The notes beneath the pieces are model-generated. The model was not told where the DNA came from and did no database searches. It was given only the letters and a program-made list of their open reading frames with translations. 64,000 bases of DNA from Eubacteriales bacterium (GTDB taxonomy: Bacteria > Bacillota > Clostridia > Oscillospirales > CAG-272), in contig JAZOCO010000045.1 in the NCBI GenBank assembly GCA_045596505.1, positions 6,443 to 70,442 on the forward strand, given 5' to 3'. Both the position numbers and the translations under genes were made by a program. Shown piece after piece: positions 6,270 through 53,286 of this stretch (within the stretch, counting starts at the first letter, position 1; every line of letters starts with the position of its first letter).

Positions 6270-7111
6270 ATTATTCACTATGCTTAAAAGAAGAGTTGAT
6301 CGCGGGAGCGCCGCATAGATCCTGCTGCAAGGCAGCATATTTGCAGGGGCTTTTTGTCAATGCCGCCAGAACCAAGGGGGGGCATATTGTGCTGACTATG
6401 TCGTCCCTTGCGGCAAGAAGGGAAGCGGCAAGGGTGTATCGCGAGCTGTATAAAAAGGAAGCACTGGTAAACGACAGAACGCTCTTGTTCTCGTCAGACC
6501 AACTGCTTCGGGATCTGACGGAGCCACCTGTTTTTTCTTGTCCCGCCTGTGCCAATGCATTTTTGCGGGGTGCGCTGATCTCGGCGGGCACGGTAACTGA
6601 TCCCGAAAAGGGATATCATCTGGAGTTTCGCCTGTATGAGGAAGAAAAGCACACGCTTCTCGTGAAGCTCCTATCACAAAACGCCTGGTTTCCCAAGGAG
6701 CGCACCCTAAAGGAAGGCTTTGGGCTTTATTTCAAGAATAGCGAAGCCATTGAGGAGATCCTCACCTCGCTTGGTGCAAACAATGCGCTTTTTGCGCTGA
6801 TGAACGAAAGGATCAAGCGCAGCATCCGTAACGAGGAGAACCGCGCGACAAACTGTGTGGCAAAAAATATAGGAAAATCCGTTAGTGCCTCGCGCCGCAC
6901 GCTTGACGCCATTGCCGCACTTCGCGCCGCAATGCGCCTTGAGGTAATGCCCCCCGAGCTGCGCCAAACCGCTTCACTGCGTGAAGCATATCCCGATGCC
7001 TCACTGGTGGAGCTGGCAAAGCTTCACAATCCACCACTCACCAAATCGGGGCTTAATCATCGCTTGCAAAAGATCATCACCTTTGCCGATATGCACAAGG
7101 AGCAAAAATAA
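6266..7111 (+). CDS. whiA: DNA-binding protein WhiA
   Basis: N-terminal 'KEELI...CCKAAYLQGLF', LAGLIDADG-like middle region and C-terminal HTH 'LTKSGLNHRLQKI'. ATGA overlap with murB. Confidence 0.85.
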   Translation: MNYSLCLKEELIAGAPHRSCCKAAYLQGLFVNAARTKGGHIVLTMSSLAARREAARVYRELYKKEALVNDRTLLFSSDQLLRDLTEPPVFSCPACANAFLRGALISAGTVTDPEKGYHLEFRLYEEEKHTLLVKLLSQNAWFPKERTLKEGFGLYFKNSEAIEEILTSLGANNALFALMNERIKRSIRNEENRATNCVAKNIGKSVSASRRTLDAIAALRAAMRLEVMPPELRQTASLREAYPDASLVELAKLHNPPLTKSGLNHRLQKIITFADMHKEQK

Positions 7112-44408: not shown

Positions 44409-44573
44409 ACTCTCCTCCTTTCTCATTATTGCATAATCATTATACTTTTTTGTATCATATATGTCAATCATTTTGTCTTTCCTTGTCACATTTCTTCTAA
44501 TTTAGCCAAAAACGTCTTGACAAAACACTCTGTGAAATATATAATTAGTATAACATATTATGGAGGGCTGTTT

Positions 44574-44795
44574 ATGTTTGATAAAGTAAAGCAAATTCTG
44601 ATGGATGAGCTGCAAATTGACGAAAATGAGATCACGCTCGATGCAGAGCTTTCAGGCGATCTTGGAATCAACTCGATCGAGCTTGCAGACCTTGTGATGA
44701 TGTGTGAGGAGCAATTCGGCGTTGAAATTTCCGAGGACGCTGCCAACGAATTTTTGACCGTCGGTGACGTTGTGAAATACCTCGAATCTCTTTGA
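44574..44795 (+). CDS. acyl carrier protein-like protein (73 aa)
   Basis: 'ELSGDLGINSIELADLVM' matches the ACP phosphopantetheine-Ser helix. Start at ATG 44574 after GGAGGG. It is an orphan with no fab genes nearby. Confidence 0.7.
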   Translation: MFDKVKQILMDELQIDENEITLDAELSGDLGINSIELADLVMMCEEQFGVEISEDAANEFLTVGDVVKYLESL

Positions 44796-44898: not shown

Positions 44899-45630
44899 AT
44901 GATGAAAAAATTACACTTGCTTCCCTTCACGCTCTCTTTCCTCTCTCTTTGCCTGATATTTTCTTCTCTTTCCCTTCATTATTTAGAGCCACGGCGTTCG
45001 GTTTTGAGCAACACCGATATTGCCAACACCCCCGTGATCATCATTGACGCGGGACACGGTGGCATTGACGGTGGGGCAGTTGGCGCTGACGGGACGGCGG
45101 AAAAGGATTTAAATCTTAAGATTTCAAAGAAGCTTGCCGCACTGCTCCGTTTGATGGGGTATGCGGTTGTAGAAACACGCACGGAGGATATTTCACTTGC
45201 AAGTGAAGATGCAAAAAAAGGACATATAAAACAATCTGACTTAGAAAACAGGCTAAGGATCGCCGCGCAATACGATAAAAAGGTTTTTGTAAGCATTCAT
45301 ATGAACACCTATTCGGGCGTTTCTTGCGAGGGGTTGCAGGTCTGGTATTCCGAGGGAGATGCCGCTTCGGCAGAAATCGCAAAGGCTGTCCAACAAGGGG
45401 TAAAAAACACTTTACAACCGCAAAATAACAGAAAAATAAAGCTTGCCACCTCCTCCATATATCTTTTGCGGCAAGCAACTTATCCCGCGATCCTCATTGA
45501 ATGCGGTTTTATTTCCAATTTAGACGAGTGTAAACGCCTTGGTGACGACCTTTATCAAAAGCAACTGGCGCTTGCTATTGCCGCTTCCATTTCTAAAAAT
45601 GTCAAAAACAATGCTTGCCAGAACGGGTAA
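44899..45630 (+). CDS. cwlD: N-acetylmuramoyl-L-alanine amidase, CwlD-like (germination-specific)
   Basis: Amidase_3 motifs 'IIIDAGHGGIDGGA', 'ISIHMN' and 'ECGFISN'. Single N-terminal TM helix and a size typical of CwlD. Confidence 0.75.
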   Translation: MMKKLHLLPFTLSFLSLCLIFSSLSLHYLEPRRSVLSNTDIANTPVIIIDAGHGGIDGGAVGADGTAEKDLNLKISKKLAALLRLMGYAVVETRTEDISLASEDAKKGHIKQSDLENRLRIAAQYDKKVFVSIHMNTYSGVSCEGLQVWYSEGDAASAEIAKAVQQGVKNTLQPQNNRKIKLATSSIYLLRQATYPAILIECGFISNLDECKRLGDDLYQKQLALAIAASISKNVKNNACQNG

Positions 45631-45649: not shown

Positions 45650-45980
45650 ATGTAGTGAGTATTAGCCGCAAGGGAATCGAACACATAAGGTTTTCGCCTG
45701 CAAATATTTGTCTATCCATCAGCAAAAAGCCTTGTAATATCCGCATATTGCTTCGGCTTTTCGCCTCGTCTTGCCTAAATATTTGCAGGATGAAAACTGG
45801 TTTCCACCCTGCGGTGTGAAAATTTTTGATGGATTTTTGTGGGGCGGGGCGAAGGAAAGTGCAGACTTTTCAAGTCACGCCACGCATAAATTGGCGGAAA
45901 TTTACCGCCGCAGGGCTTATTTGTTTGATTCCCTTGCGGCTAAGAAAAGTCGCGAAAGCCCTGTACAAAACGATTTTTTT
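45650..45980 (+). ncRNA. unclassified highly structured RNA candidate (~300 nt)
   Basis: 28-position closing helix 45662-45689 / 45916-45943 with 17 contiguous Watson-Crick pairs. Internal 93-nt hairpin with a perfect 13-bp base (45697-45709 / 45777-45789). Additional small hairpins. A U-run at 45974-45980. Own promoter upstream and a separate promoter for rlmB downstream. No ORF in this region has an RBS. Confidence 0.45.
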
Positions 45981-45990
45981 ATGTTATAAT
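45962..45990 (+). promoter_or_regulatory. extended -10 sigma-A promoter for rlmB
   Basis: TGTACA (45962-45967), a 17-nt spacer, then TATAAT (45985-45990) preceded by TGT (TGnTATAAT). Confidence 0.55.
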
Positions 45991-46041
45991 AAAACTCATA
46001 ATATAATTCTACGCGCCCGAGGGCGCACGCAAGGAGCAGCT

Positions 46042-46896
46042 ATGTATCAAAGAGATCAAGTGGAGGGTAAGCCGCGACGTCAGGGTCAGCACTATCATAA
46101 AAAGGGATATGACTCCCGCGCAAAAGCGAGAGGGGAGCGTGCGCCCTTCGATGAGGAGCGTATCGGAAGCGGTGCTGTCATTGGCAGAAACGCCGTGCGA
46201 GAGCTTTTGCGGTCGGGCAGAGCCGTTGATAAAATATTGGTGCAGGCAGGAGAGCACGAGGGGGCACTTACGCCGATTGTTGGCGAGGCGATCGCGCGCG
46301 GCATTCCCGTGGTCAATACCGAGCGCCGCAAGCTGGATAGCCTTGCAGGGAACGTGCCGCATCAGGGCATTGTTGCCTTGGCGGCAGAAAAGGAATACGT
46401 CACAGTGGAGGAGATCCTTGCCATTGCCGCCGCCCGCGGCGAGAAGCCACTGATCGTGATAGCCGATGGCATTGCCGACCCCTATAATCTCGGTGCGGTT
46501 ATCCGCTGTGCCGAGGGGTGCGGTGCACATGGGCTGATCATTCCCAAAAGGCACGCCGCGGGGCTGACGCCCGTGGTCACCAAGGCATCTGCCGGTGCCA
46601 TCGAGCATCTTGCCATTGCCAAGGTCACCAACATTGCATCGACTGTTGAGCTTTTGAAGGAGTCGGGCGTATGGGTCTTTGCTGCCGAGGCGGGCGGCAC
46701 CAATTTCCGCGAGGTCGATATGAACGTGCCCGCCGCTATCGTGCTGGGAAGTGAGGGGGCAGGAGTGTCGGAGCTTGTGCGGAAGAGAAGCGATTTTATC
46801 ATTTCAATTCCCATGCACGGACAGGTGAATTCTTTTAACGTATCCACTGCCGCAGCCGTTTTGCTGTGCGAGGCGGCTTATCAGCAGCGCAAATAA
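46042..46896 (+). CDS. rlmB: 23S rRNA (guanosine-2'-O)-methyltransferase RlmB with basic N-terminal extension
   Basis: 'GRNAVRELL', 'DGIADPYNLGAVIRCAEG', 'IVLGSEGAGVS' and 'VNSFNVSTAAAVLL'. Start at ATG 46042 after AAGGAG. The track ORF start at 45826 lies in the RNA region. Confidence 0.85.
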   Translation: MYQRDQVEGKPRRQGQHYHKKGYDSRAKARGERAPFDEERIGSGAVIGRNAVRELLRSGRAVDKILVQAGEHEGALTPIVGEAIARGIPVVNTERRKLDSLAGNVPHQGIVALAAEKEYVTVEEILAIAAARGEKPLIVIADGIADPYNLGAVIRCAEGCGAHGLIIPKRHAAGLTPVVTKASAGAIEHLAIAKVTNIASTVELLKESGVWVFAAEAGGTNFREVDMNVPAAIVLGSEGAGVSELVRKRSDFIISIPMHGQVNSFNVSTAAAVLLCEAAYQQRK

Positions 46897-46939
46897 GTAA
46901 TGCGCAAGGCTTTTGATGTTAGTAAAGGAGGGGAATGCG

Positions 46940-49915
46940 ATGCAGGAGCAGGATAAGCGTGATTTAAATGAAACCGAAATGGTCATGCAACAGCTTCGCG
47001 CTATGCTGGAAAAGGAGCAAAATGCTACCGTAGGCGATGAGACCACCAAAGAAAAAAGCGATCGCATTCCGAATCAGGAGTCAGGAGAAGCAGGAGGGGC
47101 TGCAGAGGGCGCTGTTGCCGTAATGGTGCGCCAATCAGACCCTTCAGCGGAAACCGTTCCGCTTAAAAAGGATTTGGAAGCGGGGAGTAAGGCGGCGGAA
47201 GAAAAAACACAAGACGAGCCTTTACAAACGCCCGTTTTGCGGCAGCGCACCGTACCCAAAAAAGCAAGTCCGCGCAAGAAGCGCTACCGTTTGCCAAAGT
47301 TAACGGATGATGAGCCGATCGCTGAGCCGTTGCTTGACGATGCCCTTGCCGAAAAAAAGAAGCGCGCCGAGGCGTTGGCGCGCGAGGATGAAAAGGATCT
47401 TTATTGGAGTGGTATGCGTGCAACGGAAGAGAGAGGGGCACGCCACGCGTCAAAAGTAGCAGATGATCCCGCCAAGGAAACGCGTGCAGCCAAGCCCCCA
47501 AATGAGGAGGATCCCCCCATCGAGCAAACTGCCGCATCCCGCAGAAAGGGGATCAGGTCGTCTGCGGCGAAGCGCAAGGAGGAGCTTGCAAATCTTACCG
47601 TAGAGGGGCTTCTGAGCGATATCTTCGGTGTTGGAGCACGTAATGAGCGTGCTTGGCGGGAGACACAGAAGCCTACCCCGGTGGATGAACCCTCAGAGAA
47701 CCTCTCAATGTCCGAGGCGGGGACTCCGCCAAGAGAGGAGAATGCGACCGTCAAGGCTCCCGAATCGCCCGCCGAGGAGGGGGAAGCCACCCTTGAGCTT
47801 GAAGGTACAAGGATCTTTTTACCAAAAGAAGGAACGCCGATTCGCGAGAGTGCACATAAAAAGAGTGAGGCACTGAAGGAGGCGGGCGAGGTGGCGGAAG
47901 GTGTACCGCTTTTTTCCGCATTCTCCGTCAAGCGTCAAAGGGAGGGCGCGTTGCCGAAGCCCTCTATTGCACGGCGTTCTGCTGAGCAAATGGCATTTAA
48001 GCGTGCGCTCGAGGGGTCTGATGAGGAGTTCGAGCTTTTGGTCGATCTTGATTACGAGGATGAGCTGGGAGAAGCGATCGGCTTTGAAAAGATCCTTGAT
48101 TATCACGAGCGTCGCATCAACGGCAAGACCGATGCAGGCGAGCTTCGCCCGCAGACCGTGCGCGAAAGGACGCGAGAGAAGAAAAAAAGTGAGTATACCA
48201 CGCATGCGCTGGATATTGGGATCAGTAAATTCTATGCTAAACAGCGTCGCCGTCACTTGGGCAATCTTGCCGTGACCGCCGTGTTGCTCTTACTGCTGCT
48301 GATATTTGAGCAGTCAAGTGCGGTGGTGTCGCTTTTTGGCGCGGCGCGTGAGGGAATGAAATACACCTCGCTTTATATTATCGTTGGCTTGGTGCTTCTT
48401 TTGTGCGGTGTGATCCTGCTTCGTCGCCAGCTTCTTAACGGCTTGCTGCAGCTTGCGCGCCTTGCTCCGTCGGATTATTCCTTTGCGGGCGTTGTTGTGC
48501 TGGTCACGATCGTGTATCATGTGTGCTTGCTGTTTGTCCCCGCAAGCAGTTCAATGTCGCTATGCCTTTCTCCTGCAATGGGCAACCTTTGCTTGCTCGC
48601 TGCAGCGGGGATCTTTAACTGGCACCGTGAATTCAGTGCCTTTCGCGTGATCTCCTCAAAGCAGCAAAAATACGCGCTGATGTCCCGCATATCCGTGGGA
48701 AACAGGGAGGGGAATGCAAAGCTTCGCTTGTTTGAGCAGGAGCGAGAGGAGCAACTGCTCTTTGCGCGTCCTGTCGGCTTCGTGCGCAATTATTTTGTCA
48801 ACACGGAAAAAAAGGCTGATCGCCAAAGCGCCTTTGGCGCGGAGCTGCTCATCATCGCCGCTATTTGCTGCGCTTTTGCCCTGTATTCGCTCGCGATGGG
48901 CGGCAGTATCGACAGCGCTTGGCACACCGCGTTTCTTACTTTTTTGTTTGCTGTTCCTACAGTTTCGGTGCTGGGTACGGCTTTGCCAATGTTTTGCGGC
49001 ACGTGCCTTCGTCTTGGACGTCGCGGTGCTATTGTAGGAGAGGGAGCTGTACATACCTCGGGCGGTAGAACGGCGCTTGTTCTGCCCGATGCCGATTGCT
49101 TTAAGAGGATGCCTCACGAGCAGTTTGAGCTGGTAAAGGGGTGTGATGCCCGGCGTGCAACCATTTACATACGCGCATTGCTTGAAAAGATCGAAAGTCC
49201 TCTGGTCGACACCGTGCACGTTCCAAAGGAATCCATGCTTTCGCTTGATGCCATTACGCTGACGGAGATAGATGAGGATGGTGTTGCTGCGGTCATTTCA
49301 GGGGAACGTAAAACGCCCATCTTAATGGGCAGCGTTGCATATCTGCAAAAATACGGCATTCGTGTCAGCCCCAAAAAGGACGGTAGGTACGAGGAGCTTT
49401 GCCGCCATATGATCTGTGTAGCGATCAATAATCGCCTCACGGCGTTGTTCATTGCACGGTATCGATTGCACGATGAGATGTCCCGCCTTGTACAGCTGCT
49501 TGAGAAGGAGGAGCTCACGCTCAAGATTCGTTCAAAGGATCCCGGTGTGCGCGGGGAAATGCTTGCCACCCTTTTTGCCGATGCAGGTATCACTCCCGAG
49601 GTAATAAAGCCCCTGGCGGCGGAACGGGATATTACTGCGGATAGGGTGGATGCAACCATTGTGGCGCTTGGCTCGGCACGTGAGGTGCTGAGGACCTATG
49701 CTACCTGTCGCAGGATCCGCCGTGCTGTGAAGCTTGGCAAGCTTTGGCAGCTTGCGTCCGTTTTGTGCGGTGCGGTGCTGTCGGGTATGCTGGTGTTTTT
49801 TGGTAAGATCACGGCTGTTCCAACCTTTGTGCTTGCACTTAATACCTTTTTCTGGTGCGGTGTACATGCCGCAAGCTCTTATTTTATGCTACGCGATAAA
49901 GAGGATAGTGAATAA
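46940..49915 (+). CDS. P1B-ATPase-like 8-TM protein with degenerate catalytic motifs and ~450-aa disordered N-terminal region
   Basis: Start at ATG 46940 after AAAGGAGGGG. The N-terminal half is E/K/A/P-rich low complexity. The C-terminal half aligns by eye to CopA-type pumps, but CPC reads 'VPT', DKTGT reads 'DADCF', TGDN reads 'SKDP', and no GDGxNDxP or TGES is present. Confidence 0.7.
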   Translation: MQEQDKRDLNETEMVMQQLRAMLEKEQNATVGDETTKEKSDRIPNQESGEAGGAAEGAVAVMVRQSDPSAETVPLKKDLEAGSKAAEEKTQDEPLQTPVLRQRTVPKKASPRKKRYRLPKLTDDEPIAEPLLDDALAEKKKRAEALAREDEKDLYWSGMRATEERGARHASKVADDPAKETRAAKPPNEEDPPIEQTAASRRKGIRSSAAKRKEELANLTVEGLLSDIFGVGARNERAWRETQKPTPVDEPSENLSMSEAGTPPREENATVKAPESPAEEGEATLELEGTRIFLPKEGTPIRESAHKKSEALKEAGEVAEGVPLFSAFSVKRQREGALPKPSIARRSAEQMAFKRALEGSDEEFELLVDLDYEDELGEAIGFEKILDYHERRINGKTDAGELRPQTVRERTREKKKSEYTTHALDIGISKFYAKQRRRHLGNLAVTAVLLLLLLIFEQSSAVVSLFGAAREGMKYTSLYIIVGLVLLLCGVILLRRQLLNGLLQLARLAPSDYSFAGVVVLVTIVYHVCLLFVPASSSMSLCLSPAMGNLCLLAAAGIFNWHREFSAFRVISSKQQKYALMSRISVGNREGNAKLRLFEQEREEQLLFARPVGFVRNYFVNTEKKADRQSAFGAELLIIAAICCAFALYSLAMGGSIDSAWHTAFLTFLFAVPTVSVLGTALPMFCGTCLRLGRRGAIVGEGAVHTSGGRTALVLPDADCFKRMPHEQFELVKGCDARRATIYIRALLEKIESPLVDTVHVPKESMLSLDAITLTEIDEDGVAAVISGERKTPILMGSVAYLQKYGIRVSPKKDGRYEELCRHMICVAINNRLTALFIARYRLHDEMSRLVQLLEKEELTLKIRSKDPGVRGEMLATLFADAGITPEVIKPLAAERDITADRVDATIVALGSAREVLRTYATCRRIRRAVKLGKLWQLASVLCGAVLSGMLVFFGKITAVPTFVLALNTFFWCGVHAASSYFMLRDKEDSE

Positions 49916-49951: not shown

Positions 49952-51817
49952 ATGAACGAAAAGATCAGTTCTATTTTAAAGACCGTTGAAAAGCCCGGCA
50001 GATATTCGGGCGGAGAATACGGCGCAGTGATAAAAAATAAAAAAGAGGTCAAAGCACGCTTTGCCTTTTGCTTCCCCGATACGTACGAGATCGGTATGTC
50101 TAATCTCGGCATGCGCCTTTTGTACGGATGCCTCAATCAGGAGCCCGATATCTGGTGCGAACGCGTGTTTGCACCGTGGGTGGATATGCAGGAGAGGATG
50201 CGGGAGCACGGCGTGCCGCTCTGGGCGCACGAATCGGGCGACCCTGTGAAGGATTTTGATATCCTAGGCATCACACTGCAATACGAAATGTGCTATACCA
50301 CGGCACTGCGTGTGCTTCAGCTCTCCGGGATCCCACTGCTTGCCGCAGAGCGCGGCGACGATGCTCCCATTGTGATCGGCGGCGGTCCTTGCGCTTATAA
50401 CCCCGAGCCGATCGCGGACTTCTTCGATTGCTTCTCGATCGGAGAGGGTGAGGATAATTTGGTGGAGTTTACCAAGCTGTATATCCGCATGCGAGAGGAG
50501 GGCAGGTATACTAAGTCCTCGTTCTTGCGCGAGGCGGCGGCTACCATAAAGGGCATCTACGTGCCGTCTCTTTATGACGTCACCTATCACGAGGATGGCA
50601 CCATCGCTGCCATCACACCAAAGTTTGAGGACGTGCCTCGGCAAGTGGAAAAATGCATCATTGCCGATCTTGACAGCGCGTATTTTCCCGAAAAGCTGGT
50701 AATGCCGTATATCGAGGCGGTACACGACCGCATCATGCTCGAGGTCTATCGCGGCTGTATCCGCGGCTGTCGCTTCTGTCAGGCGGGCATGATCTATCGT
50801 CCCGTGCGTGAGCGATCGCATGAGGTTCTGAATAAACAGGCACGCTGCCTTTACGATAACACGGGATACGAGGAGATCTCTCTGACGTCGCTCTCCATTA
50901 GTGATTATACCGAGCTTGAGCCGTTGACGCGCGAGCTGCTTGAATGGACGGACCCCAATATGGTCAGTCTTTCTCTGCCTTCACTTCGCGTGGATAGCTT
51001 CAGCCGCGAGCTGATGGATCGCATCGCCTCGGTCCGCACCTCGTCCCTTACGTTCGCTCCGGAGGCGGGCACGCAGCGCCTGCGCGACGTGATCAATAAA
51101 AACGTGTGCGAGTCAGATCTTATGCGCGCCGTCAATATTGCGTTTTCGGGCGGAAAGACCAACGTAAAGCTCTATTTTATGAACGGACTTCCAACGGAAA
51201 CTGCCGAGGATATTGCGGGCATCGCCACACTTGCAAAAAGCGTGGTGCACGAATATTATCAAAATAAGGATCGTCCCAAGGGCAGATCCCCGCAGGTCAC
51301 AATCAGTGTTTCCTGCTTTGTGCCAAAGCCCTTCACACCCTTCCAGTGGGAGGCGCAGGATACCATGGAGATGCTAAAGGAAAAGCAGGCGTATCTTGGC
51401 GAGCAGATAACCGACCGCAAGGTGCGCTATACGCACCACGATGCGCGTGTCAGCCGCATTGAGGCAGTCCTCGCGCGCGGCAACCGTAAGCTTTCAGCGG
51501 CACTGCTGCTTGCCGCAAAGGAGGGCTTTTGCTTTGATGCGTGGGATGAGTTCTTTGATTACGACAAGTGGCTGTCCGTCTTTGAGCGTACAGGGATCGA
51601 TCCCGCATTCTTCGCCAATCGACAAATGGGGCTTGACGAGGTGCTGCCGTGGGACATCATTGACTGTGGCGTCAGCAAGGAATTTTTAAAGCGTGAGCGC
51701 ACCCGCGCCTATGAGGCTGCCACCACGCCCAGCTGCCGCGAAAAATGCTCGGGGTGCGGTGCCAATCGCTTGGGAGGCAAGCGTACCTGTTGCCCCGGGG
51801 GAGGTAACGAGAAGTGA
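49952..51817 (+). CDS. B12-binding-domain radical SAM protein (TIGR03960-like)
   Basis: 621 aa. Radical SAM cluster motif 'CIRGCRFCQAG'. The N-terminal B12-binding-like domain matches my recollection of the family. Confidence 0.8.
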   Translation: MNEKISSILKTVEKPGRYSGGEYGAVIKNKKEVKARFAFCFPDTYEIGMSNLGMRLLYGCLNQEPDIWCERVFAPWVDMQERMREHGVPLWAHESGDPVKDFDILGITLQYEMCYTTALRVLQLSGIPLLAAERGDDAPIVIGGGPCAYNPEPIADFFDCFSIGEGEDNLVEFTKLYIRMREEGRYTKSSFLREAAATIKGIYVPSLYDVTYHEDGTIAAITPKFEDVPRQVEKCIIADLDSAYFPEKLVMPYIEAVHDRIMLEVYRGCIRGCRFCQAGMIYRPVRERSHEVLNKQARCLYDNTGYEEISLTSLSISDYTELEPLTRELLEWTDPNMVSLSLPSLRVDSFSRELMDRIASVRTSSLTFAPEAGTQRLRDVINKNVCESDLMRAVNIAFSGGKTNVKLYFMNGLPTETAEDIAGIATLAKSVVHEYYQNKDRPKGRSPQVTISVSCFVPKPFTPFQWEAQDTMEMLKEKQAYLGEQITDRKVRYTHHDARVSRIEAVLARGNRKLSAALLLAAKEGFCFDAWDEFFDYDKWLSVFERTGIDPAFFANRQMGLDEVLPWDIIDCGVSKEFLKRERTRAYEAATTPSCREKCSGCGANRLGGKRTCCPGGGNEK

Positions 51818-52533
51818 AAAACAACGACGTAAAATTTACCCTGCCGATGCTCCCCGAGCCGCGCACGCTGCGCGTGCGCTTTCGCAAGGTGGGGAATCTC
51901 CAATATATCTCGCACCTTGACCTGCAACGCACCTTTGGGCGTGTGCTGGTGCGTGCGGGACTGCCGCTTTGGTATACCAAGGGCTTTAACCCGCATATCA
52001 AAATGGTGTTCGGTATGCCCTTGCCCGTGGGGGCGGAAAGTGAATGTGAGCTGCTGGATATCCGCATTGAGCGCGAGATGCCCGCCGAGGAGGTCAAGGC
52101 ACGTCTTAGTGCGGAGCTGACCGAGGAGCTTGCCGTTCTTGCAGTCTATCCCGCCACTACCAAATTCAGCGAGATCGCCTTTGCGGAATATGAGTATACC
52201 GTTGTAACCGCTGGGGCTGACGAAGCGCTTGCCGCGCGTGTGCGCGAGGCGCTGGCGTCAGGGGCGATGACTGTTACCAAAAAAACAAAGGCGGGCGAAA
52301 AGGAGATAAAGGTCACCGAATATATCAGGTCCGCTAAGGTCACCCTTGATGGTGAGGTCCTTCGCATCAACGCGGTGCTTTCGGCAGGAGAGGGGAGATA
52401 TATCTCGCCCGAGGCATTGATCATGGCACTCCGTGCCGCCACGGGCATCCTTTCGGGCGATCCTGCCGTGGAGCGTTATCGGATTTTGCGCCGTCGCGCA
52501 CTGCTTGCCGACGGTGTCACCGAATTTATGTAA
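51814..52533 (+). CDS. radical SAM-linked protein (TIGR03936/DUF2344-like)
   Basis: 'RVRFRKVGNLQYISHLDLQRTF...GFNPHIKMVFGMPLPVG'. GTG start overlaps the upstream stop (GTGA), implying translational coupling. Confidence 0.75.
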   Translation: MKNNDVKFTLPMLPEPRTLRVRFRKVGNLQYISHLDLQRTFGRVLVRAGLPLWYTKGFNPHIKMVFGMPLPVGAESECELLDIRIEREMPAEEVKARLSAELTEELAVLAVYPATTKFSEIAFAEYEYTVVTAGADEALAARVREALASGAMTVTKKTKAGEKEIKVTEYIRSAKVTLDGEVLRINAVLSAGEGRYISPEALIMALRAATGILSGDPAVERYRILRRRALLADGVTEFM

Positions 52534-52545
52534 AGGAGAAAAATT

Positions 52546-53286
52546 ATGCAGATCAAGGACGGAGTAAAGCAGGTAGAGGGTGAGATCAGATCCTTTTTGC
52601 TGATCGGACAGTCTAATATGGCGGGCAGAGGCGAATTTGCCGACGTTGTGCCCATTGAAAATAAGCAGTGCTATATGCTTCGCATGGGGCGTTGGCAGAA
52701 AATGAGCGAGCCGATCAACCCCGACCGCGCGATTTTTCAAGGTAAATTTCGCAGTGGTGTGGGACTGGGTGCCAGCTTTGCCGACTCTGTGGCAAACACC
52801 TTCGGGTGGCGTGTGGGGCTGATCCCATGTGCCGACGGTGGCACGAAAATTTTGCAATGGGCACCGGGTGAGCTTTTGTTCGATCACGCTGTGATGATGA
52901 CAAAGCTCGCATGCCGCACGTCGCGCCTTTCGGGCATTTTGTGGCATCAGGGAGAGAGCGACTGCCACAGCGACGAGAGCGTTTCCGCTTATAAGGAGAG
53001 GTTTATCACCATGATCACGGCGCTGCGCCGCGAGCTTGGCGCCGAGGATCTGCCGTTGCTTATCGGCGAGCTTTCCGAACAGATCGGCGCAGAATGGAAG
53101 GTGGGGGATCATCCCAAGCAAATGAACGCCGTTTTCCGTGAGATCGCCGCCACCCTGCCACACACCGCCGTGGTGTCTGCGAAGGGGTTGGGACTAAAGC
53201 CCGACAGCCTTCACTTTAACGCGGTGGCACTGCGCGAGTTTGGTAAGCGTTATTTTGCAGCGTTTTCCTCTTTGATGGAAAAATAA
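52546..53286 (+). CDS. sialate O-acetylesterase-like SGNH hydrolase (DUF303)
   Basis: 'LLIGQSNMAGRG', 'CADGGT', 'ILWHQGESD' and 'LHFN'. Confidence 0.75.
   Translation: MQIKDGVKQVEGEIRSFLLIGQSNMAGRGEFADVVPIENKQCYMLRMGRWQKMSEPINPDRAIFQGKFRSGVGLGASFADSVANTFGWRVGLIPCADGGTKILQWAPGELLFDHAVMMTKLACRTSRLSGILWHQGESDCHSDESVSAYKERFITMITALRRELGAEDLPLLIGELSEQIGAEWKVGDHPKQMNAVFREIAATLPHTAVVSAKGLGLKPDSLHFNAVALREFGKRYFAAFSSLMEK

Follow-up and report, generated by a model that had tools for sequence, protein, structure and literature searches.

A divergent P1B-type ATPase homolog lacking the catalytic motifs, encoded between rlmB and a radical SAM gene pair in gut Clostridia

Analysis of a 64,000-nt stretch of DNA (the window; positions 6,443 to 70,442 of the forward strand of contig JAZOCO010000045.1, assembly GCA_045596505.1) from an Eubacteriales bacterium of the CAG-272 lineage demonstrated that the gene at 46940..49915 (stop codon included) encodes a protein descended from P1B-type ATPases. 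The 991-aa product is referred to here as X, and all coordinates given below lie on the + strand of the window. Few membrane enzymes are as well understood as the P-type ATPases, and a protein is normally assigned to this class by the invariant aspartate of the DKTGT motif. X combines homology to an enzyme family with loss of the catalytic residues and purifying selection, the three features by which a pseudoenzyme is operationally recognized, and it is very probably a functional pseudo-enzyme of P1B origin. This supports the conclusion of an initial annotation, made by a model from the letters alone, which had inferred a pseudo-enzyme; homology, degenerate catalytic columns and intact, selected open reading frames (ORFs) all point the same way. 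On the whole, we lean toward reading X as an intact, selected, non-catalytic pseudo-pump that is descended from P1B pumps and acts as a membrane-anchored scaffold.

Homology to P1B-type ATPases

Fold and profile comparisons demonstrated that the last ~570 aa of X are a very divergent homolog of P1B-type (CopA/ZntA) ATPases. Single-sequence searches with whole X against Pfam, NCBIfam and the PDB returned only noise, the Pfam E1-E2_ATPase and Hydrolase models did not detect the X family, and nine distant family members were likewise without Pfam matches. The AlphaFold2 (AF2) model of the last 571 aa had a pLDDT of 86.3 and a pTM of 0.85. When this model was searched against the PDB with Foldseek, only P-type ATPases were retrieved, in full-length alignments, with P1B pumps leading. 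The best match was Legionella CopA (LpCopA, 4bbj; E = 1.5e-12), followed by ATP7B, AfCopA, HMA4, ZntA and CadA, and KdpB, Pma1 and MgtA came after them; the leading P1B matches spanned E = 1.5e-12 to 1e-9.

Profile searches gave the same assignment. A family hidden Markov model (HMM) built from nine trimmed members that are mutually ~20% identical matched LpCopA (residues 340-586) in the PDB at E = 7.1e-11. Fifteen of its 17 matches at E ≤ 1 were P1B pumps, and the weakest two were Na,K-ATPase alpha chains (E = 0.14 and 0.92). Comparison of a 100-member alignment with E. coli CopA and ZntA by hhalign scored 97% (E = 1.2e-10, 464 columns), spanning MB (CopA 224) to M5 (CopA 793), and the near-clade profile alone scored 89.5% (E = 2e-6) in the same comparison. 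Because a near-clade full-length profile gave a marginal CopA match in the PDB (E = 0.006) together with a low-complexity artefact from the tail (FAP114), the alignments were cut to the core. The colinear CopA/ZntA similarity that the initial annotation had seen by eye was therefore recovered by Foldseek, HMM and hhalign comparisons at E values of 1e-10 to 1e-12. The initial annotation had also named a profile search that found no P-type homology as a possible disproof and a comparison of the model with CopA as a check; the family HMM and hhalign matched P1B pumps, and Foldseek placed P1B pumps, including LpCopA, on top.

Hydropathy analysis indicated eight hydrophobic transmembrane (TM) segments, at aa 448-466, 476-494, 515-533, 541-559, 636-654, 664-682, 935-953 and 957-975. 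This is the P1B-specific layout of MA, MB and M1-M6, with the headpiece between M4 and M5, and the AF2 helices agreed with it; the eight-TM layout proposed from the sequence was thus found by both methods. TM helices 1-4 (MA, MB, M1 and M2) occupy 48245..48652, as placed by hydropathy, AF2 and the hhalign match starting at CopA 224. TM helices 5-6 (M3 and M4) occupy 48824..49015, and the P-domain stalk helix with TM helices 7-8 (M5 and M6) occupies 49676..49891 (AF2 helices 913-953 and 962-984; hhalign match to CopA 793). The model shows breaks in the sixth TM helix at P673 and P683, comparable to the break of M4 at its CPC proline, and these two prolines were conserved in 99% and 96% of 100 family members, respectively; the flanking Cys positions were not conserved. 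Alignment to P1B pumps placed V-P-T (48953-48961) at the CPC motif, with the Pro kept and both Cys lost, and the transmembrane metal site is therefore absent. The same alignment placed L-P-M (48983-48991) at the A-T-P turn. No conserved equivalents of the YN (M5) and MxxSS (M6) metal ligands were found in the 100-member alignment, where only W972 was conserved in these helices.

Catalytic columns and N-terminal region

The strings DKTG, TGE(S), TGD, GDGxND and CPC do not occur anywhere in the X protein. The aligned motif columns were read from HMMER and hhalign alignments, which agreed with each other, and the residue frequencies below refer to 100 family members. The degenerate phosphorylation/nucleotide-binding (P/N) headpiece covers aa 693-912 (49016..49675), as located by the HMM match to LpCopA 340-586, hhalign and Foldseek. 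Within it, the remnant of DKTGTL reads P-D-A-D-C-F (49085..49102), and three alignments agreed in placing Pro716 in the phospho-Asp column. The beta strand of the AF2 model ends at Pro716, which is consistent with this residue filling the nucleophile position. The initial annotation had read the motif as DADCF; the loss it described holds, while its register was one residue off, PDADC being the correct reading. The phospho-Asp column (aa 716) is Pro in the X clade and was variable in the family at large (D52/E19/P13/S5/R4/A3), and a phospho-Asp is therefore not needed. The next column, that of the DKTGT Lys (aa 717), was D90/E9, and aa 719 was E46/D35.

The SEHPL motif of the nucleotide pocket is represented in X by E-S-P-L (49193..49204; HMM and hhalign alignments). 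The family columns at this site (G88, G85/S13, P83, L89) read G-G-P-L in most members, with the His lost in all and the Glu in most. The nucleotide pocket of the N domain is thus not recognizable in the sequence; Gly781 and Gly797 were retained. TGDNP is reduced to S-K-D-P, aligned as S-K-D-(gap)-P (49532..49543; hhalign and HMM alignments), where aa 865 was T75/S25, the next residue was variable, aa 867 was D92/N8 and aa 868 was P99. In P-type ATPases, TGDN and GDGxNDxP coordinate Mg2+ and phosphate, the Mg2+ ligands lying in GDGxNDxP, and TGES is the dephosphorylation loop of the actuator (A) domain. According to hhalign, the GDGxNDxP strand of P1B pumps falls in a deletion of X. The residue at 890 (K61/R32/H6) possibly corresponds to HAD motif III, its positional equivalence being uncertain, and aa 841, at the Asp column of the DPLR hinge, was Tyr in all members (Y100). 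By HAD standards, the motif I column is variable (Pro in X) and the motif IV strand is deleted, with the T/S of motif II kept.

The A domain of CopA (~110 aa) aligned mostly to gaps in hhalign, leaving a beta stub of ~45-55 aa in X. The AF2 strands place this vestigial A domain, a beta mini-domain of ~55 aa without TGES, at 48653..48823. The reduction of the actuator had been recognized in the initial annotation, and only its description as a short linker has to be replaced by that of a small beta domain. The stub is flanked by the two most conserved signatures of the family, RExxxFxVVSSKxxKY and FVxNYFxxT, and F568 and K577 in this region were conserved at 94% and 91%, respectively.

The same losses extended across the family. 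Among 135 members, DKTGT at the homologous site and GDGxND were each found in none (0/135), and TGD was kept in one member. The absence of the catalytic signatures proposed from the sequence was therefore upheld, both as missing strings in X and as aligned columns that are degenerate, not mis-aligned, in X and these 135 relatives. In a distant member, P0110 (L043 8001-10382), the TGDN site is still intact as L-T-G-D-S-N and the DKTGT site reads F-D-D-A-D; this protein may be a less degenerate, more basal form and may be useful for tracing the decay of the motifs.

Overall, the elements of the Post-Albers cycle lost in X comprise the phospho-Asp and the rest of DKTGT, the GDGxND strand, the TGES loop, the nucleotide-pocket His (and the Glu in most members) and the CPC, YN and MxxSS ligands. 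What was retained is the eight-helix membrane core with both M4 prolines and a shrunken P/N headpiece. Since every element of the cycle is lost, X cannot pump metals by the known mechanism, and the sequence leads us to infer that X is catalytically dead and does not pump. The motif loss, together with the columns that were kept around it, indicates that the chemistry of the old phosphorylation pocket has gone and that a conserved surface remains.

The region ahead of the membrane core has its own architecture. The composition of aa 1-420 is rich in E (15%), A (12%), K (9%), R (9%) and P (7%). This region contains no Cys and therefore no CxxC, and no Pfam match was obtained to HMA, the N-terminal metal-binding domain that many but not all P1B pumps carry; the low complexity and the missing metal-binding motif noted in the initial annotation were both borne out by these counts. 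The full-length AF2 model had a pLDDT of 78, and 226 residues were below 50, nearly all of them in aa 1-334. The disordered stretch of ~450 aa described earlier thus applies to approximately aa 1-342, with the exception of helices within it, and does not extend to a folded unit at aa 343-394. Confidently predicted parts are the helices at aa 9-31 (pLDDT 85-88) and aa 132-170 and the four-helix unit at aa 343-394 (pLDDT 84-94). The N-terminus of X, as modeled, is better described as a mostly disordered tether of ~340 aa with short motifs, followed by a small folded helical unit.

The helix at aa 9-31 (46964..47032) carries a motif, LNETEMVMQQLRAMLEKE..., that recurs in distant members with the rough pattern [ST]x[DE]ELLxxL[KR]xxh. 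It is followed by the mostly disordered E/A/K/R/P-rich tail at aa 32-342 (47033..47965), with pLDDT below 50 over most of its length, in which helical islands at aa 132-170 and 201-228 and the short conserved motifs TVEGLLxDIFG and LFSAFSV were found. The pre-membrane helical unit (aa 343-394; 47966..48121) contains four AF2 helices and the motif [DE]hxLLxxL(G/D)YExELGxxxGFEKI, which is conserved in near and distant members. Between the N-terminal helix and the pre-membrane motif, both length and sequence vary freely among homologs. The charge of the tail is mixed in the X clade and extremely acidic in other clades.

Family extent, selection and gene neighborhood

A word-index search found 47 relatives of X with 23-100% identity, all without Pfam domains and all from metagenome-assembled genomes (MAGs) of Oscillospiraceae, Clostridia or Eubacteriales; a protein identical to X was present in the public collection (P0001). 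When 1.84 billion representatives of 50%-identity clusters were searched exhaustively with an HMM, the X family was represented by 3227 clusters at E ≤ 1e-3, of which 2366 reached E ≤ 1e-10 and 939 reached E ≤ 1e-30. In the best 150 matches, the module of ~560 aa was always C-terminal, after an N-extension of ~50-735 aa. X thus belongs to a large undescribed family of gut Clostridia with ~2,400 50%-identity clusters at E ≤ 1e-10. A genome scan with near-clade patterns, which understates the range of the family, detected it in at least 34 species-level MAGs. A homolog search with a diverse core alignment returned only the near clade, and a search with the core of a distant member returned 115 further MAG proteins, none of them named. 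No names or Pfam domains were found among the family members retrieved, which are labeled only as "hypothetical protein". A literature search for pseudo-, degenerate or inactive P-type ATPases yielded no description of the X family, which is absence of evidence in the library searched and not proof of novelty. One 162-aa fragment in the 236-member P0229 cluster is labeled 'Candidatus Colimorpha enterica' (Bacteroidales in NCBI), unlike the Clostridia labels elsewhere, and this label probably reflects a taxonomy or binning problem.

The X genes are intact and under selection. In all 39 loci examined, X was an uninterrupted ORF of 630-1250 aa that fills the gap between rlmB and the radical SAM (rSAM) gene; the 5' end of the 630-aa ORF (L017) is cut by a contig edge. 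Nei-Gojobori ratios of nonsynonymous to synonymous substitution (dN/dS), calculated for six pairs, ranged from 0.05 to 0.13 in the core and from 0.19 to 0.27 in the tail. Frameshifts or pseudogenization in relatives, which the initial annotation had listed as evidence that would weaken its proposal, were therefore not found in these intact ORFs under purifying selection. Across loci in which the rSAM protein is 80-90% and RlmB 70-90% identical, X is 36-73% identical, and this faster rate fits what is typical of a non-enzymatic, interaction-type protein.

The setting of the gene is also constant. The order rlmB - X - TIGR03960 - TIGR03936 was kept in every locus with sufficient contig reach (~40 loci), and it also holds for members just 20-23% identical to X (L001, L035-L037, L040-L043). 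No P-type pump or metal-resistance gene adjoins X in any of the ~40 loci. A metal-resistance pump was ruled out, as X has no metal ligands and the wrong genomic context, and a mobile or defence element was ruled out by the fixed housekeeping-operon position across the ~40 loci. The rSAM and DUF2344 (TIGR03936) genes are fused in L042. Insertions were seen in L034 (~3 kb between X and the rSAM gene) and in L018, L024 and L029 (~1 kb between the rSAM and DUF2344 genes). The TIGR03960/TIGR03936 pair itself is very highly conserved (80-90% identity) across related loci. In the wider context of several distant loci, spoIIP, gpr and a sigma factor were found. The organisms bearing X are probably spore-formers, since spoIIP and gpr lie near X in distant loci and a CwlD-like amidase is encoded in the window.

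In the window, the longest mechanical ORF at the X locus is 46913-49915, and ATG 46940 was chosen as the start. A ribosome-binding site read off the sequence, aaaggagggg (46925..46934), has its GGAGG 7 nt ahead of this ATG, in line with the strong site noted earlier. Upstream lies rlmB (46042..46896), encoding the 23S rRNA Gm2251 methyltransferase (TIGR00186, 207 bits, over the cut-off). Downstream lie a TIGR03960 B12-binding radical SAM gene (49952-51817; 923 bits) and a TIGR03936 radical-SAM-associated gene (51814-52533; 181 bits). These profile scores identify the neighbors between which the initial annotation had placed X. An RluA-family pseudouridine synthase gene lies further downstream of the TIGR03936 gene. 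The distances from the end of rlmB to the start of X and from the end of X to the start of the rSAM gene are 43 and 36 nt, respectively. Consensus matching, which is weak evidence, found no terminator-like sites in either gap and promoter-like sites upstream of rlmB. The arrangement of rlmB, X and the rSAM gene is compatible with a single operon, and a common transcript of X with rlmB and the TIGR03960/TIGR03936 pair is probable. A literature search on DUF2344/TIGR03936/TIGR03960 returned no described function for the rSAM pair; a role in RNA modification is hinted at by the constant association of the pair with rlmB, X and an RluA-type gene.

Other features of the neighborhood were as follows. 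The mechanical rlmB ORF (45826-46896) runs ~70 codons 5' of the likely start at 46042, and RlmB from 46042 has a basic N-terminal extension of ~44 aa ahead of the RlmB profile match. A 246-aa ORF without an NCBIfam match is located at 52546-53286, between the TIGR03936 and RluA-family genes. In most related loci, RluA follows DUF2344 by ~100-250 nt, and this ORF therefore looks like a lineage-specific operon insertion; L005 has a gap resembling that of the window. The CwlD-like N-acetylmuramoyl-L-alanine amidase gene is located at 44899-45630 (193 bits, under the TIGR02883 equivalog cut-off of 221.55). A 92-aa ORF at 44517-44795 has a C-terminal end (DLGINSIELADLV...) that was judged by eye to be acyl-carrier-protein-like.

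Possible roles of X and comparison with known systems

The scaffold or tether, taken by itself as the class of mechanism, is a tentative choice that falls short of an even chance. It is the most economical mechanism and was favored over a channel or nucleotide sensor because the ion-site residues and the nucleotide-pocket Glu/His are lost. In a scaffold, the membrane core and headpiece would form a rigid membrane-anchored platform, the most conserved surfaces of which would be the A-domain stub and the vestigial phosphorylation pocket. The flexible cytoplasmic tail would present the N-terminal amphipathic helix and the pre-membrane helical unit, and these elements may either bind a partner in the cytoplasm or turn back onto the headpiece in a regulatory capacity. 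Because rlmB, X and the rSAM pair probably share a transcript, such a partner may belong to an RNA-modification or ribosome-related module and could be drawn from RlmB and the rSAM proteins. A more specific proposal would make the X family a membrane-tethered hub that recruits or regulates RlmB and the TIGR03960/TIGR03936 pair through the N-helix, the pre-membrane unit and the P-pocket, tying ribosome and RNA maturation to the membrane, possibly during sporulation; this proposal is distinctly speculative, and we regard it as improbable as it stands.

Several points weigh against the scaffold. The vestigial P-site cluster is kept family-wide, with an acidic residue at 717 (D90/E9), Thr/Ser at 865 (100%), Asp/Asn at 867 (100%), Pro at 868 (99%) and a basic residue (Lys/Arg/His) at 890 (99%). 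This could signal a ligand-, phosphate- or metal-binding role instead of pure scaffolding. The docking of the N-terminal helix and helical unit on the headpiece is a conjecture drawn from pLDDT only. The shared gene order of X, rlmB and the rSAM pair could reflect inherited position without functional coupling, and every family member comes from an uncultured MAG.

Alternatively, X could work as a sensor or passive channel ('transceptor'), in which a small ligand or ion bound or conducted by the core, or phosphate, metal or a nucleotide at the P-site, would switch the headpiece and tail without ATP turnover. The P-site cluster (717, 865, 867, 868 and 890, ~99-100% conserved), the M4 prolines P673 and P683 (96-99% conserved), at which the helix is still broken, and the strong purifying selection on the core (dN/dS 0.05-0.13) would suit such a protein. 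However, no conserved polar equivalent of CPC/YN/MxxSS remains within the membrane, M5/M6 conserve only W972, most members have Gly-Gly, and X has Glu-Ser, in place of the Glu and His of the P1B adenine pocket, and the Mg-binding strand is deleted. We consider this alternative unlikely.

By analogy with known proteins, X could also be a non-catalytic subunit that pairs with and regulates a genuine P-type pump encoded elsewhere. In published AlphaFold models, CtpH and CtpI of M. tuberculosis reportedly consist of a canonical pump at the C-terminus preceded by a P-type-like but degenerate N-terminal region (PMC13460109), which provides a precedent, and the full membrane core of X could pack against another pump. 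However, no P-type ATPase gene was found beside X in the ~40 loci, and the invariable neighbors are RNA-modification-type genes, so that this possibility was given a low probability. The CtpH/CtpI N-terminal regions are like X in being bacterial P-type-like modules without canonical features (PMC13460109), but they are fused to a functional P2-type pump, whereas X stands alone, is of P1B ancestry and has no pump gene nearby.

An enzyme with a shifted active site, for example a phosphatase or atypical ATPase with Asp717 as nucleophile in a D-x-[DE] HAD-like motif, is of still lower probability. The frequencies at 717 (D90/E9) and 719 (E46/D35) resemble the DxD of HAD motif I; the T/S of motif II persists, as does a basic residue in the place of motif III. 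Nevertheless, three alignment methods put Asp717 on the DKTGT Lys and not on the nucleophile, the model strand ends at Pro716, and one member (P0036) carries Ala at 717. Moreover, X has a deletion where HAD motif IV, the Mg2+-holding GDGxND strand, would lie, and the A domain required for dephosphorylation is gone. The comparison with HAD-superfamily phosphotransferases at large is similar: the Rossmann-like core of the P domain is common to both, and X keeps the motif II Thr/Ser and the basic residue at the motif III position, but the nucleophile column of motif I is variable and the strand of motif IV has been deleted.

The empty single-sequence searches of Pfam, NCBIfam and the PDB would suit a decaying pseudogene or a P-type likeness by chance, but both have a negligible probability and were ruled out, the former by 39 intact loci with dN/dS well under 1 and the latter by profile and fold statistics of 1e-10 to 1e-12, with thousands of clusters in the family.

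Among characterized proteins, the P1B-1 Cu(I) pumps (Legionella CopA 3rfu/4bbj, A. fulgidus CopA, E. coli CopA and human ATP7A/B) were the best Foldseek, HMMER and hhalign matches of X. X is like them in having MA, MB and M1-M6, a P/N headpiece inserted between M4 and M5 and an M4 broken at a proline, and it keeps the xPL of SEHPL, one Gly of GxG, the Gly of GN and the T-x-D-P of TGDNP. It is unlike them in that the phospho-Asp/DKTGT and TGES are lost, the A domain is a stub of ~50 aa, the GDGxNDxP strand is deleted and the CPC, YN and MxxSS ligands are absent. A variable disordered tail with its own motifs takes the place of the HMA/CxxC domain, and the gene context consists of rRNA/RNA modification genes and not of cop or czc metal-resistance genes.

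The P-type scaffold has also been recruited outside classical ion pumping in alveolate guanylate cyclases, which carry P4-ATPase-like domains with motifs partly divergent in some paralogs (PMC13466520; 10.1101/2020.09.07.285734). X resembles these domains in this respect, but they occur in eukaryotes, stem from P4 ATPases (flippases) and are joined to cyclase domains, and ATPase activity has been reported to be required in PfGCalpha (PMC13466520; 10.1101/2020.09.07.285734). The degenerate P-type modules found in the literature, CtpH/CtpI and the alveolate cyclases, are thus appendages of active enzymes. A recent review of open questions on P-type ATPases (PMC10654040) makes no mention of members that stand alone and are inactive. 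Judging from its sequence, X works like no characterized P-type ATPase. As its fold and homology are those of the family and five motif-based features are missing, X is better filed as a 'P1B-ATPase-derived pseudoenzyme family' than as a P-type ATPase.

The X family challenges the definition of P-type membership by DKTGT, in that the P1B fold was kept while the phospho-Asp, the phosphatase loop, the Mg strand and the ligands were lost. The stand-alone, strongly selected and very diverse X family would illustrate clearly what a bacterial 'pseudo-pump' is. Because Pfam and NCBIfam are blind to the X family, thousands of gut-microbiome proteins have been left as 'hypothetical' by annotation pipelines. 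The short conserved motifs on the disordered tail are testable interaction sites, and the fixed position of X between rlmB and the TIGR03960/TIGR03936 pair provides a handle on two uncharacterized families at once.

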